From: Escherichia phage ph0011
Sequence record: OP557969.1
Length of the DNA: 64,000 nucleotides
Direction: 5' to 3' (one strand)
In this document: one piece after another, positions 52,870-60,183 of the stretch
Layout of the letters: the number at the start of each line of letters is the position of its first letter
Numbering within the stretch: the first letter of the stretch is position 1
Notes under the pieces: model-generated
What the model was told of the DNA's origin: nothing
What the model saw: only the letters and a program-made list of their open reading frames with translations
Databases searched by the model: none
Program-made: the position numbers and the translations under genes

Positions 52870-52881
52870 GGAAATGTGCAA

Positions 52882-53391
52882 ATGCAACTAACTAATTTTA
52901 AGATGTACGATAAAGAAGATGGAAATCCAAATTCTTTGTATATGATGTCCGATGAAGGCATGGATTGGTATGAATCTCGTGGTCTGTTTGACATTAACAA
53001 AGCCAAATTTATGTATGATGCCAATGGATTGATAGTTTCTGCATCATATGACATTTATGATCTAGTACCTTTGGGGTTTAGTGTTTCTGAAATTGAGTAC
53101 GATGGTGACGTTAACAAACTTTATGGTATGATTTATGATGGTAAAACTATCAAGGAGTATGTAGAAACCAAAGAAGAAAAGATTGAACGTCTTAAGATTG
53201 AATTGGAAAAATTAAAATACTCTGCAATTCAACAGCTTGGGCATTTGAAAACAGCTATGGATCTTGAGTTAGCATCAGATGAAGAAGCTGTATTGTTTGC
53301 AAAATTAAAAGAGTATGTAACACAATTGTCGTCAATTAAACCAGTAGATATGGTCAAAAAAACATTTTCATTTCCAGTCAAACCTGAATAA
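52882..53391 (+). CDS. tfa: Tail fiber assembly chaperone, Tfa family (169 aa)
   Basis: SDEGMDWYESRG...AKFMYDANGLIVSASYDIYDLVPLGFSVSEIEYD and C-terminal LELASDEEAVLFAKLKEY resemble lambda/E. coli Tfa; ORF-track start is GTG 52876; ATG 52882 has RBS AAGGAAA. Confidence 0.7.
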   Translation: MQLTNFKMYDKEDGNPNSLYMMSDEGMDWYESRGLFDINKAKFMYDANGLIVSASYDIYDLVPLGFSVSEIEYDGDVNKLYGMIYDGKTIKEYVETKEEKIERLKIELEKLKYSAIQQLGHLKTAMDLELASDEEAVLFAKLKEYVTQLSSIKPVDMVKKTFSFPVKPE

Positions 53392-53432
53392 AAATTGAGA
53401 CAGCACTGAAATGTATGATACAATTTAGTCAT

Positions 53433-53464
53433 CTCACCAGCGGTGGTGAGGTGACATTTTTTTT
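53433..53464 (+). terminator. Hairpin plus T8 run after Tfa gene
   Basis: Stem CTCACC/GGTGAG with loop AGCGGT, then GTGACA and TTTTTTTT; the ORF-track start 53415 lies inside it and is rejected. Confidence 0.5.
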
Positions 53465-53489
53465 CAAAACAAACATGGAGAAATACAAA

Positions 53490-53792
53490 ATGGCTAAATC
53501 CAAAAAAGAAGTTAAAGTTGAAATTCGTGATCTAAACGATGAACAGCGTAAACGTCTCGGTGATGCACTTAACAACATCGTAGTCCAACTAACTTTTATC
53601 GATGATACTAAAGCATCTTTATCTGATTTTGTTTCTAGTGTTTCAGACGAACTTGGTATTGATGCATCCGATATCAAACAAGCGGCACAACGTATGTACA
53701 AAGGTGATTACTTTGACAAACAAAGTAAACTAGATAATATTGAAACTATTCTAAGTGTTACCAACAATCTTCCACAAGCAGACGATTACTAA
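53490..53792 (+). CDS. Hypothetical protein (100 aa)
   Basis: ATG 53490 (MAKSKKEVKVEIRDL) with RBS GGAG 9 nt upstream. Confidence 0.45.
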   Translation: MAKSKKEVKVEIRDLNDEQRKRLGDALNNIVVQLTFIDDTKASLSDFVSSVSDELGIDASDIKQAAQRMYKGDYFDKQSKLDNIETILSVTNNLPQADDY

Positions 53793-53815
53793 TTTGTAAT
53801 AAAATATATTAAATT

Positions 53816-53842
53816 GCCTCCATGGACGGAGGCATTATTTTT
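53816..53842 (+). terminator. Intrinsic terminator upstream of DNA polymerase gene
   Basis: Stem GCCTCC/GGAGGC, loop ATGGAC, followed by ATTATTTTT. Confidence 0.65.
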
Positions 53843-56800: not shown

Positions 56801-56877
56801 TTGGTATTTTAGATATGGATATTGGTATTCATGAAAAAAGTACTGCATCAGTAAACAATGGATTCTTCACTTGGTAA
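53872..56877 (+). CDS. gp43: Family B DNA polymerase with 3'-5' exonuclease domain (T4 gp43-like, 1,001 aa)
   Basis: Exo I FFDIETD; motif A DFNSLYPTV; motif B KILLNSLYG; motif C YGDTDSVYF; RBS AAGGGA. Confidence 0.95.
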   Translation: MYIDAYMERKRTGDILHVVERKNGKRILRELDPVYEYYVESPQGTHKTVYGTMAKHFEFQTQAQMNKSVEQHKSEGLRIFESDCNITFKTLAKEYMGKGSPDLNIVFFDIETDFHKKFGYAPPSDPFNRVTAISLYQSWTGKDYVLTLPPDDMEIYEAQDIVRKLNEETNDPNSTVILYTDEKEMFMEFFSLIDDSDIISGWNSEFFDIPYMINRTKKIFNEATTARWCLWNKKPTSREADNFGKIVQTYDLIGRVHLDYLALYKKHAGQVEQSYKLDYIAEKVTKENKVSYEGSLDKLYREDYITFLRYSKQDSILLKKIDAKCDYINLHNRLAHKECVLISTTMGSVALIDTAIINLAHARGEVVFNKAPKDDVEFDPEMEYYGEDGIDGEEKISAKAAGAWVQDPVLGLVSDLGCTDFNSLYPTVLRTLGMSTECILGQLRQDYTDAYLADKIQEQKSKSKSKSFEPDWTAAWHGLFAAVEFTMVHEKSEETLIVDLEDGSSFKATGKELYDIIFAEDSTIVLSANGTLFDKSKSGVIPDILTQWYSERKAQQKMVIDYKHMCTDGWEFNGHEKVEPLLSNYTHGTMFRTNIHDNDPVYLLRKEIGKGQWDEVAKLIVENGLILKEGRIFCPNEEKEYFKQRSAFWKQNQQIRKILLNSLYGALLNKGSRFFDKRLGQSVTLTGRSMTKHMASRINEITTGEYIHHGGSVIYGDTDSVYFSVTHYLKEQGIPYNLSKEEIVDMYIKIGEEVGESFPTFMHEMFNTGIEKGKIVGADLEMVGSRGLFLKKKRYAILKYWEDGFRKDIDGKPGEIKAMGLEIKRSDTPKYIQNFLEETLIALLVGESEQQLKQRVRAFKDVFKDMPVYEKGSPKTVKNYTNLEAEYQLTGKCKVGHVLAGIQWNRLREIYDDKTVPEVTDGTKVIVCNLKDNPMGIKAVGYPIDCVEYLPEWFLELPFDTEKMEEIVLTKKLENIFGILDMDIGIHEKSTASVNNGFFTW

Positions 56878-56888
56878 GGAGTAATATT

Positions 56889-57038
56889 ATGGTTATTGTA
56901 AATGAAATTGAGCTAAACTATGACGAAGTAAATGATACTTTCACTAATGCAATGTTGAATATTACTGAAGAAAGTGTAAATGAGGCATGGGAAAAATATG
57001 TAGAATGGACTTCATTACAAGGTAAAAATGATGAGTAA
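56889..57038 (+). CDS. Small acidic protein (49 aa), not in ORF track
   Basis: ATG 56889 preceded by AAGGAG with 7-nt spacing; ends TAA 57036-57038, overlapping the next gene start by 11 nt. Confidence 0.4.
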   Translation: MVIVNEIELNYDEVNDTFTNAMLNITEESVNEAWEKYVEWTSLQGKNDE

Positions 57039-57327
57039 TATATATAAGCGTATTGGTGAAGTACTAGAAGGCAATGGTATCATCAATTCTGTACTAGCAT
57101 ACGATAATGATGAAGAAGTAGTTCTAATTGGTGCGGGTTTTACCCGTACTGGTTCTGTTGAAGTTGATGGCGAGATTGTTGATGTTTATACTCTTGTGAA
57201 AAAGCGTAAAGTTGTTTTTGTAGACGATGTGCATACATTAAAAGACTTAGAAAAATTACGCAATAAAATTGGCATGAGTTCTACAATTGATAAGCCTTAT
57301 CTTAAACGTTGGAACACAAAATTCTGA
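57028..57327 (+). CDS. Hypothetical protein (99 aa)
   Basis: ATG 57028 in overlap with the preceding small ORF; no recognisable motif. Confidence 0.45.
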   Translation: MMSNIYKRIGEVLEGNGIINSVLAYDNDEEVVLIGAGFTRTGSVEVDGEIVDVYTLVKKRKVVFVDDVHTLKDLEKLRNKIGMSSTIDKPYLKRWNTKF

Positions 57328-57425: not shown

Positions 57426-58157
57426 ATGGATCTACGCAACGTACTACGTGACCTAGTTAACACCACCAGCAGCATCGATTTTTCTTGTATCGCAGTGAGT
57501 AGTGAAGACCGTGGTGAAGGACAACGTGTATATATGGAAGCGTATACAGATGACCGAACTCTTGTTATGCGTGCATATACAAAAGAAGATGTTCCTGAAG
57601 TTCAGGGTCGTTTTGGTCTAGGAAACCTAGGTCTTCTTCAGGGTCTAATGTCCCTTAAAACGTACAGTACTGAAGGAACTACCATTACATCTAATGTTAA
57701 AGATGGTTCAGTTAAAAGTTTAGGATTTAAATCAGAAGATGCAAGTACTACATTTATGGTACAAGCAGAAAAACTTATTCCAGTTCAACCACGTTTCCAT
57801 GAACAACCATATGACGTACAGGTTATTCCTAGTGCTGCTAAAGTTCAAGAACTAAAAAGTTTTTCTGGTGTATTCAAATCATTTAGTTCTCTCGTAACAC
57901 CATACACTGAAGGAGACACTCTATACTTTCATGTTGGTGAGAAAAACAAAAGCAATCACGTTGGGTCATTAGCTTTTTCTAAAACTGAAGGTGAATTGGG
58001 TCTTGGATTTGGATACAATATTGATCGTGTACTTCAAGCACTGTCCCGTGTATCTAATGCTGAATCTGTATCACTCGGAATTACCAAAACTGGTATGCTA
58101 AATGTAACGCTTGATACTGGTATTGCAGTATACAAATTTTACGTAACAGGTTGCTAA
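57426..58157 (+). CDS. Sliding clamp-like protein (T4 gp45-like, 243 aa)
   Basis: GRFGLGNLGLLQGLMSLK and S.DASTTF...L.PVQP segments align with T4 gp45 (VAIYDLNGFLGILSLV, STIFWPAADPSTVVAP) from memory; near the polymerase; RBS GGAGA. Confidence 0.5.
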   Translation: MDLRNVLRDLVNTTSSIDFSCIAVSSEDRGEGQRVYMEAYTDDRTLVMRAYTKEDVPEVQGRFGLGNLGLLQGLMSLKTYSTEGTTITSNVKDGSVKSLGFKSEDASTTFMVQAEKLIPVQPRFHEQPYDVQVIPSAAKVQELKSFSGVFKSFSSLVTPYTEGDTLYFHVGEKNKSNHVGSLAFSKTEGELGLGFGYNIDRVLQALSRVSNAESVSLGITKTGMLNVTLDTGIAVYKFYVTGC

Positions 58158-58224: not shown

Positions 58225-58431
58225 ATGCCATTATATACATATCGTTGTGAAAAAGAAGAATGCAAGCATAGCATTGAAAAAATTGTTAAAATTGCAAATC
58301 GTGATGAACCTCATGATTGTCCTAAATGTAATGGTGAAAAAACTATGAAGTTGGAAGTGTTCACTCCAGGTGATAAAGGTGCTAATCTTTATTTTCGTGG
58401 AAAATGGTTTGCAAATACTGGGGGCTACTAA
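58225..58431 (+). CDS. FmdB-type zinc-ribbon protein (68 aa)
   Basis: MPLYTYRCEKEEC...DCPKCNG: two CxxC pairs with the characteristic YxYxC start; RBS AAGGAA. Confidence 0.65.
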   Translation: MPLYTYRCEKEECKHSIEKIVKIANRDEPHDCPKCNGEKTMKLEVFTPGDKGANLYFRGKWFANTGGY

Positions 58432-58432
58432 T

Positions 58433-58732
58433 ATGAAAATTAAAATGATTAATGATTATGTACTTGTTCGCCAAATTGAAGCACAGAATAAAAGTTCTGG
58501 TGGTATTATTCTTGGTAATGTTGAACCACCTTGCATTGGTATGGTAATTTCAGTTGGGCCTGGTAAAATCTTACCTAATGGACAATTAGCAGAGCACAAT
58601 ATTAAAGAAGGTGATATGGTTGTATTTGGACGCTCTTCATTGAACACCCCACTCACTGAAGATCTTGGTGGTGGTGAAGATACATATTATGTAATGAAAA
58701 TTGAAGAGATTTTTGGTAAGAAAAATGGCTAA
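58433..58732 (+). CDS. GroES-like co-chaperonin (cpn10; functional analog of T4 gp31, 99 aa)
   Basis: MKIKMINDYVLVRQIEAQNKSSGGIILG...GMVISVGPGKILPNG...GDMVVFG follows the GroES pattern; ORF-track upstream start rejected, ATG 58433 used. Confidence 0.7.
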   Translation: MKIKMINDYVLVRQIEAQNKSSGGIILGNVEPPCIGMVISVGPGKILPNGQLAEHNIKEGDMVVFGRSSLNTPLTEDLGGGEDTYYVMKIEEIFGKKNG

Positions 58733-59450
58733 AAAGAAATTCATACCATTTTGGCTTGTCCCTGCACATTGGGGACTTTCTGGAAAAGCAAAAGAGATTG
58801 CCAAAGCATACTACTACAATGATGATTATGAAGCTGATATGAAAGTTGCAGAATTGACATATTTAACTCCATATGAAGTAGAAGTAGCACATTTAGATAT
58901 TAAAAAGAAATATAATGTAATTGGAGAACTTGAATATCTAATCGCAGTACTTGATGTGGACCTTAAATATTCTAAAATTACACGTGAACAGTATGACGTT
59001 AAAGTTCTTGATGCAAAATTAAGTACTGGAACTATTACTGAAAAAGAATATGACATGGAAATTATCGAGTTAATGCCAGACGGTGATGAAAAAAGGCTGA
59101 AGGCAATTGAATATGCATATCGATATGATGAAATCACACAAAGTGAATATTCTAAGGAAATATACACACTTCGTAAAGAGCCGTGGATTGATTTAGACGT
59201 GGTTCTTGACCCTGATACGAATGAAGTTGAGTTTGTGTTTGATTATAATGAGTATTTCTGGAAAAAGTTGAAGGCTGAAGGCCATCCAGGTAATGACGAA
59301 GAAGAGATTATTGATAATTTTGTTAGAGACTTAGGTCGTAAACTTGCCACGGATGATTTCAGTGATGATTATGACACAAAGTTGGTGAGTGCGAACGAAG
59401 GATTAGACAAGCTACCTGGTTTGCCTGAAGGTTTTCGTTCATATAGATGA
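58725..59450 (+). CDS. Hypothetical acidic protein with internal KEYD/EY repeats (241 aa)
   Basis: ORF-track start 58701 is TTG; ATG 58725 (MAKKKFIPFW) overlaps the GroES-like stop; followed by a strong terminator. Confidence 0.45.
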   Translation: MAKKKFIPFWLVPAHWGLSGKAKEIAKAYYYNDDYEADMKVAELTYLTPYEVEVAHLDIKKKYNVIGELEYLIAVLDVDLKYSKITREQYDVKVLDAKLSTGTITEKEYDMEIIELMPDGDEKRLKAIEYAYRYDEITQSEYSKEIYTLRKEPWIDLDVVLDPDTNEVEFVFDYNEYFWKKLKAEGHPGNDEEEIIDNFVRDLGRKLATDDFSDDYDTKLVSANEGLDKLPGLPEGFRSYR

Positions 59451-59455
59451 AATAT

Positions 59456-59487
59456 AAAAAGGAGAGCATATGCTCTCCTTTTCTTTT
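59456..59487. terminator. Bidirectional intrinsic terminator (near-perfect palindrome)
   Basis: GGAGAGCATATGCTCTCC flanked by an A-run and TTTTCTTTT; between convergent genes. Confidence 0.85.
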
Positions 59488-59493
59488 GATATA

Positions 59494-60183
59494 TTAAACC
59501 AATGCTGGGAGGTATTTGAATAGTTTAATACCGAAATCACCTGCTGCATCAGCGGCCTGTGAACGAAGATACACTTCAGTGACACCATCTTTTGCCAATA
59601 GCGGAACACCAGTTAGGTCATCGATTAGTAGGCGACCTTCTTCATATTCAGTACTTGGAACACCTTGTGGTGATTTGAGATCTTTATTAAAGACACTAGC
59701 ACGTTCAACAAGGAATGTGATAACAGAAGCATCATCAATGCTAACGCTACCAGCACTCATAACACCATCAGGTGCGTTGGAGAAACCAGTAACCGGAAAC
59801 GCTTCAGCACCACTTCCTGCAATGTTGGATGTGGCAATAACAACTGCACGCTGTTGCACAACGTCTACGATGCGTTTGACGTTGGTTTGTGCTGCATAGG
59901 ATGCATTGTAATCTGATTCTAGTGATTCTAGAACGAAAGCAGAACCATCAACACGCTTGATACCTTTATCATTTAGGTATGCTAGAATTTCTTCTGGGAT
60001 ATCAGTGTTTAGAAAACGTTGTAAACCTACATAAGAGGAAACTGCTCCTGTTACAAGAACGTTCACGTCACCAAGTTTACTAATAGCAATAGATGCTAGG
60101 GCGTTAGTACCACAAAAGTAACCTAGAATACGCTCAAATGAATACCCATTGATACGTTCAAAAGAAGTATTAGTATTTGACAT
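59494..60183 (-). CDS. Hypothetical protein, paralog A of a tandem pair (229 aa), probable late/structural gene
   Basis: Shares VVQQRAVVIATS...VFNKDLK blocks with the adjacent gene; RBS GAGAGG. Confidence 0.5.
   Translation of the reverse strand: MSNTNTSFERINGYSFERILGYFCGTNALASIAISKLGDVNVLVTGAVSSYVGLQRFLNTDIPEEILAYLNDKGIKRVDGSAFVLESLESDYNASYAAQTNVKRIVDVVQQRAVVIATSNIAGSGAEAFPVTGFSNAPDGVMSAGSVSIDDASVITFLVERASVFNKDLKSPQGVPSTEYEEGRLLIDDLTGVPLLAKDGVTEVYLRSQAADAAGDFGIKLFKYLPALV

Follow-up and report, generated by a model that had tools for sequence, protein, structure and literature searches.

Small translationally coupled genes occur in phage replication clusters, an example being the 43-regA-62-44-45 cluster of phage T4. 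Asteriusvirus, the genus of the 121Q-type phages, consists of jumbo myoviruses of about 350 kb. The known DNA mimics, a class with which a small acidic phage protein may be compared, are mutually unrelated, so that membership of the class does not depend on similarity to one of them. A small size and a high acidity have been linked to DNA mimicry, and the helical dimer of T7 gp5.9 has been modelled over residues 1-49 (PMC9836394). The closest described gene is gene 611 of phage 121Q (YP_009102198.1), which codes for a 49-residue hypothetical protein and lies between gene 610 (the polymerase) and gene 612.

The DNA analysed here (the window) is a stretch of 64,000 nucleotides from Escherichia phage ph0011 (OP557969.1). 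It has about 93% nucleotide identity to the Escherichia phages 121Q, PBECO4, phAPEC6, SP27 and others, about 81% to a second clade formed by fEgEco12, Ecwhy_1 and WPEC3/5, and 76-79% to A4, JNE01 and Turkey5. Judged by its sequence, the source is an Asteriusvirus-type jumbo coliphage. Directly behind the polymerase gene of the window, an earlier note had pointed out a short acidic reading frame. The explanation that best accounts for the observations, and that very probably holds as a whole, is that this frame is a genuine small gene that codes for a protein, belongs to the replication operon and is the orthologue of 121Q gene 611.

The small gene and its orthologues

The features of the locus are collected in Table 1. 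The small gene ends with the TAA at 57036-57038, and its ATG is separated from the AAGGAG box by the seven nucleotides TAATATT, in agreement with the good spacing noticed earlier. The polymerase stop codon (TAA, 56875-56877) overlaps the box, which confirms the position claimed for the gene directly after the polymerase. The product, MVIVNEIELNYDEVNDTFTNAMLNITEESVNEAWEKYVEWTSLQGKNDE, has a mass of 5.8 kDa. It is indeed acidic, having 12 acidic residues (Asp and Glu) against 2 basic ones (both Lys) and a net charge of -10. In the same frame there is a 55-aa ORF opening at a TTG (56871-57038), which is below the 60-aa cutoff of the program-made ORF track. The statement that the gene was missing is thus true of that track but not of the public annotation, where GenBank and RefSeq records of relatives carry it as a CDS.

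Table 1. Features of the polymerase-to-clamp region of the window.
Feature	Position	Strand	Basis or remark
Family-B (T4 gp43-like) DNA polymerase gene, 1001 aa	53872..56877	+	ORF; DNA polymerase in 121Q and other relatives
Shine-Dalgarno box AAGGAG	56876..56881	+	Read from the sequence; overlaps the polymerase stop codon
Small gene, 49 codons and TAA	56889..57038	+	phrog_29025 match, annotated homologues, dN/dS, codon usage, AlphaFold2 model
Likely Shine-Dalgarno box of the downstream gene, CAAGGT (codons Gln44-Gly45)	57018..57023	+	7 nt (57024-57030) before ATG 57031
Downstream gene, 98 aa, NIYxRIGE...AGFxRTGS family, phrog_36847	57031..57327	+	Alternative start 57028 gives 99 aa
243-aa gene, sliding clamp in some relatives	57426..58157	+	phrog_12062; so annotated in fEgEco12 and Turkey5

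The polymerase gene is matched by PF03104 and PF00136, as found with the identical gene on public contigs. The 243-aa gene has no Pfam or NCBIfam match, and its name rests on the fEgEco12 and Turkey5 records.

The start signal and the length carry little of the evidence for the small gene. AAGGAG followed by an ATG 5-10 nt later occurs at 11 sites in the window, of which seven lead into ORFs of 49 aa or longer and four into short ones; the box taken alone is suggestive of a gene and not decisive. A length of 49 codons is not significant by itself, because chance ORFs of similar size are common in DNA of 34.5% G+C, the window having many off-frame ORFs of 30-90 aa. Codon usage is more informative. 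Using a score trained on the 31 long ORFs of the window, the frame of the small gene was found to reach 0.83 bits per codon, compared with 0.69 +/- 0.21 for in-frame 49-codon chunks of the long genes. No off-frame chunk attains 0.83, and the other five frames at the small gene score between -0.1 and -2.1 bits per codon (the off-frame values including -1.6 and -2.1). The small gene also occupies a space between two genes that would be empty without it. An RNA element in place of a gene was rejected: in the whole 64-kb window no match to an Rfam family passes the gathering threshold, and the strand opposite the small gene carries no ORF of at least 30 aa.

121Q gene 611, PBECO4 gp511 and phAPEC6 gp217c are orthologues of 49 aa that are 96% identical to the window protein, from which they differ at two residues (A21/E21 and I25/L25). 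They, too, lie between the polymerase gene and the 98-aa gene, and overlap the latter by the same 8 nt. An annotated CDS is also present in G17, fEgEco12 (46 aa), A4 (51 aa), and JNE01 and Turkey5 (47 aa), and at least 24 public contigs (from ENA, NCBI and Logan assemblies) carry a gene call for the identical protein, with unchanged start and stop. The match to phrog_29025 extends from end to end (residues 1-49 against profile positions 1-49 of 49; E 6.6e-36, 123 bits). The gene is therefore already public, its product being annotated as hypothetical in numerous GenBank and RefSeq records and grouped as phrog_29025, and is in this respect an ordinary finding. The order polymerase - small gene - NIYxRIGE-family gene is the same in 121Q, PBECO4, G17, phAPEC6, UE-S1, fEgEco12, Ecwhy_1, A4, JNE01 and Turkey5.

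In the UE-S1 and Ecwhy_1 records the small gene is started at an upstream ATG inside the polymerase gene, giving 60 aa (1459-1641 of the extracted locus) and 65 aa (1732-1929), respectively. These starts are probably wrong, because the conserved Shine-Dalgarno box and ATG point to shorter products, of 49 and 46 aa.

The family is narrowly distributed. A tblastn search located one copy per genome, with no paralogue, in about 36 coliphage and Salmonella phage records. In a clustered collection of 5.8 billion sequences 15 clusters were matched, all belonging to the small-protein family, and a full HMM scan of 1.84 billion representative proteins gave six matches, all to stand-alone proteins of the same family, with no homologue outside the phage subclade among these representatives. 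The gene is absent from the more distant phages EJP2, Munch, RaK2, K64-1, GAP32, CBB and Hallingskeid, in which the family HMM scores at most 2 bits in all six frames of the polymerase-to-clamp interval. By these searches the small gene is an ORFan, confined to a single subclade of Asteriusvirus-like phages of E. coli and Salmonella.

In its layout the locus resembles the T4 cluster: a short gene lies between the polymerase and clamp genes, its Shine-Dalgarno box is inside the end of the preceding gene, and stop and start codons overlap. The resemblance does not extend to the product, which is not homologous to RegA, gp62 or any other T4 protein (no Pfam, NCBIfam or PDB sequence match), and the small gene is absent from most RaK2-like relatives.

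Conservation and selection

The homologous ORF was taken from nine relatives in four clades, namely 121Q, PBECO4, G17, UE-S1, fEgEco12, Ecwhy_1, A4, JNE01 and Turkey5. Conservation of the frame, on which the earlier note had made its proposal depend, was seen in all clades examined. In each of the nine relatives the ATG is kept, the polymerase stop is overlapped by a TAAGGA(G) box, and the frame stays open for 46-51 codons, the changes in length being in frame. In JNE01 only four codons are available upstream in the frame of the small gene, so that no earlier start is possible there. The small gene starts at ATG 56889, which has its own Shine-Dalgarno box.

Upon comparison with the window (Nei-Gojobori), the dN/dS of the small gene was found to be 0.135 for 121Q, 0.115 for UE-S1, 0.230 for fEgEco12, 0.228 for A4 and 0.181 for JNE01, with a dS that ranges from 0.12 to about 2.6 and is saturated between clades. 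These ratios resemble those of the adjoining 98-aa gene (0.07-0.28); the values for the clamp and the C-terminal region of the polymerase are 0.01-0.06 and 0.02-0.06, respectively. The amino-acid sequence of the small gene is under purifying selection. Ten residues (E13, V14, D16, L23, E27, A33, W34, Y37, V38 and G45) are invariant across the four clades.

The sole broken copy is that of phage CMSTMSU (MH494197.1, a record marked UNVERIFIED). Compared with fEgEco12 it has a 1-nt deletion in a run of G, which changes GCGTGGGAAC to GCGTGGAAC, as well as a 2-nt deletion at the end of the polymerase gene, and its polymerase is annotated as several CDSs. The deletions (1200-2230 of the extracted locus) fuse the small and downstream genes into an annotated 147-aa protein. 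This fusion was rejected as a true frame disruption in view of the G-run deletion, the status of the record and the fragmented polymerase; the disruption is most likely a sequencing error.

Conservation, dN/dS, codon usage, the phrog_29025 match and the existing CDS annotations all agree with the original suggestion that the length cutoff had hidden a real small gene. There is little doubt that the gene is real and translated.

The product and its possible roles

The acidity of the product is maintained while its sequence diverges. Despite identities of only 45-57%, the four clades have net charges of -10, -10, -10 and -12, and the window protein is more acidic per residue than the products of all 31 long ORFs. 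The proteins of the family have no cysteines and contain five to seven aromatic residues.

An AlphaFold2 model based on a 12-sequence alignment has helices at residues 3-19 and 27-44, with a mean pLDDT of 64.5 and a pTM of 0.38; the block of the second helix averages a pLDDT of about 88. The hydrophobic face of each helix points 177-178 degrees away from the acidic one. The model suggests, with modest confidence, a two-helix amphipathic hairpin in which V14, L23, A33, W34, Y37 and V38 are buried and the Asp and Glu residues are outside. Since a hairpin of 49 residues cannot bury so many aromatic side chains alone, dimerisation or docking on a partner is likely.

Searches of Pfam and NCBIfam with the small protein gave nothing above threshold. 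A profile search of PDB sequences yielded no hit with an E-value under 0.2 and no DNA mimic, and Foldseek with the AlphaFold2 model found no PDB match and only BFVD matches with E above 4. The statements on function made here are accordingly derived from charge, shape and gene neighbourhood. A literature search found no transcriptome, ribosome-profiling or whole-cell proteome for Asteriusvirus, and the small gene is not discussed in the fEgEco12 paper. The phAPEC6 virion proteome does not contain gp217c, as expected for a non-structural protein of 5.8 kDa. This absence is uninformative, because the protein is non-structural and trypsin gives only one usable peptide from it (YVEWTSLQGK).

Virion mass spectrometry of phAPEC6 (MK817115.1) does list the clamp homologue gp215c and the single-stranded-DNA-binding protein gp204c. 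One would not expect replication proteins there, and carry-over or packaging may account for their presence.

Most likely the activity of the acidic hairpin would consist in binding to a second protein, whether the hairpin is a dimer or is clamped onto its partner. Taking the gene as real, the role that we place first, at somewhat less than an even chance, is that of an accessory partner of a co-expressed protein of the replication module. The candidate partners would be the short-form downstream protein in the first place, and then the polymerase or the clamp. In favour of the first candidate are the constant adjacency and coupling of the two genes, and the restriction of the small gene to phages with the short form.

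Second in rank for a real gene, and possible though unlikely, is an inhibitor of the DNA-mimic type directed at a host DNA-binding or defence protein; some other role takes up the remainder. The corresponding alternative, which concerns the role only and leaves the gene real, pictures an anti-host or anti-defence hairpin, probably a dimer, that would imitate the phosphate backbone of DNA and thereby block a DNA-binding enzyme of the host, for instance a nuclease, a restriction enzyme, a glycosylase or an SMC complex, in the manner of T7 gp5.9, lambda Gam, Ocr and phi29 p56. It is suggested by the small size and the charge of -10 over 49 residues, by the persistence of that charge in diverging sequences, by the predicted helices with outward Asp and Glu faces, and by the restriction to one lineage and fast evolution often seen in counter-defence genes. 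The small protein is like T7 gp5.9, lambda Gam, Ocr and phi29 p56 in the features of such proteins, namely about 50 residues, strong acidity, a largely helical structure and surface Asp and Glu (PMC9836394, PMC3711442). The resemblance is in kind only. T7 gp5.9, an inhibitor of RecBCD and MukBEF, is a parallel coiled-coil dimer, whereas an antiparallel hairpin is predicted here. The small gene is found among the genes of a replication operon, coupled to those of the polymerase and of a conserved replication-module protein, and outside any early cluster for host takeover. Moreover, the small protein resembles no solved DNA mimic in sequence or fold, its best-conserved residues include A33, W34, Y37 and V38, aromatic and hydrophobic residues that suit a specific protein interface or core at least equally well, and acidity alone predicts weakly. 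Altogether we consider this alternative unlikely.

A recent, lineage-specific invention with a new activity, either as an inhibitor of the DNA-mimic type directed at a host nuclease or defence protein or as a small subunit replacing a lost C-terminal domain of the downstream protein, is a further and rather improbable reading. The second form of this idea touches on the organization of the distant RaK2-like jumbo phages, which have one gene between polymerase and clamp, coding for 138 aa in EJP2, 190 aa in Munch, 169 aa in GAP32, 170 aa in CBB, 167 aa in Hallingskeid, 120 aa in K64-1 and 90 aa in RaK2. That single gene is homologous to the 98-aa protein of the window through its N-terminal domain (NIYxRIGE...AGFxRTGS), not to the 49-aa protein. 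The small gene is found only where the downstream protein has the short form of 98-103 aa, without the AAYDPLSILxDY-containing tail of the long forms, and this association may represent a single evolutionary event.

Junctions with the neighbouring genes, and significance

The ATG of the small gene follows the polymerase stop after 10 nt in fEgEco12 and A4, 11 nt in the window and 121Q, 12 nt in JNE01 and 13 nt in UE-S1. Gaps of 10, 11, 12 and 13 nt correspond to frame offsets of 1, 2, 0 and 1 relative to the polymerase, and the Shine-Dalgarno box is kept throughout. Because the frame varies by clade, a conserved extension of the polymerase by readthrough or frameshifting was rejected. The arrangement argues for initiation at the small gene's own start, with ribosomes terminating at the polymerase stop probably supplying it.

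At the 3' end there are adjacent ATGs at 57028 and 57031 (57028-57033), and gene callers are divided between products of 99 and 98 aa for the downstream gene. G17 and UE-S1 have ATA where the window has ATG 57028, so that the conserved start, and most likely the true one, is 57031. The overlap with the next gene described earlier therefore exists, but its length of 11 nt needs ATG 57028; from the conserved start it is 8 nt (ATGAGTAA). The same 8-nt overlap is present in 121Q, G17, UE-S1 and A4, a 4-nt ATGA overlap in JNE01 and Turkey5, and a 1-nt gap in fEgEco12 and Ecwhy_1. The frame of the small gene relative to the downstream gene thus varies between clades as well, and the two genes always adjoin, whatever the type of junction. 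The CAAGGT of the small gene probably doubles as the Shine-Dalgarno box of the downstream gene, its equivalents in the same place being CAAGGAG in fEgEco12, CAAGGGG in A4 and TATGGGG in JNE01. Q44 and G45 are nearly invariant, for which this dual role may be the reason.

A terminator-like hairpin at 53815-53834 precedes the polymerase gene, none is found between the polymerase and the 98-aa gene, and promoter-like hexamers are present in the 98-nt gap before the clamp gene. These consensus-level signals hint that the polymerase, the small gene and the 98-aa gene are co-transcribed. Ribosomes would then translate the three one after another on a single mRNA, through coupling of termination and reinitiation.

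Such tight packing could also mean that the ORF is a mere translated spacer or leader, through which ribosomes that leave the polymerase stop reach the downstream start. Its own box overlaps the polymerase stop, its stop codon in every clade overlaps the downstream start or is at most 1 nt away from it, and the downstream box is inside its last codons, all of which a spacer would explain. A spacer would not explain why dN/dS is 0.12-0.23 with saturated synonymous sites, which means that the amino acids are selected, or why the ten invariant residues and the net charge are kept across the four clades. Neither is the ORF needed for coupling, because relatives that lack it place the downstream gene close after the polymerase, at 11-15 nt in Munch, GAP32, RaK2 and Hallingskeid and at 45 nt in EJP2. 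The spacer is accordingly a very improbable explanation.

Almost no weight is given to the idea that the ORF is not an independent gene at all, being a chance ORF (frequent at such lengths in AT-rich DNA), a C-terminal extension of the polymerase (in JNE01 and Turkey5 it is in frame with the polymerase, behind a TAA stop) or the detached N-terminus of a split downstream gene (as the 147-aa CMSTMSU annotation and the acidic N-terminal extension of the downstream homologue in RaK2 and K64-1 might suggest): chance is excluded by conservation, dN/dS and codon usage, conserved recoding by frames of 0, 1 or 2 relative to the polymerase according to clade, the CMSTMSU deletion destroys the most conserved helix, and the RaK2 extension is not detectably related, the family profile giving at most 2 bits in seven distant phages. 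The resemblance of …NELYEEYKKM… in RaK2 and K64-1 to NEAWEKYVEW was likewise rejected as a sign of fusion or splitting, the family HMM scoring -3 bits there.

Some other features of the window were observed in passing. The 125-aa ORF at 53415-53792, whose product weakly matches a transcriptional-regulator PHROG (phrog_639, E 3e-7), corresponds to the 100-aa gene 609 of 121Q, and phrog_12534 aligns from residue 28; it probably starts in truth at Met26 (53490). A strong hairpin with a T-run at 53428-53455 would with that start be upstream of the gene, and resembles a terminator of the preceding gene (52876-53391). The GroES-like gene 58370-58732 is listed from GTG 58370 (120 aa), overlapping a zinc-ribbon gene (58225-58431). 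In 121Q, G17 and A4 it starts just past the zinc-ribbon stop (99 aa), and public calls are of 95, 99 and 117 aa. Between the convergent genes 58701-59450 (+) and 59494-60183 (-), a perfect palindromic hairpin of 11-12 bp at 59456-59483 (AAAAGGAGAGCATATGCTCTCCTTTT), with T-runs on both strands, resembles a bidirectional terminator.

The small gene illustrates that real phage genes under selection are lost below an ORF cutoff of 60 aa, and that they can be recovered reliably with the help of the Shine-Dalgarno box, codon usage and cross-clade dN/dS. Its importance beyond correct annotation is little. If the product were a DNA mimic or a new accessory factor of the replisome, which is at most a reasonable guess, the family would add one more effector of about 50 aa to the micro-proteins of jumbo phages.
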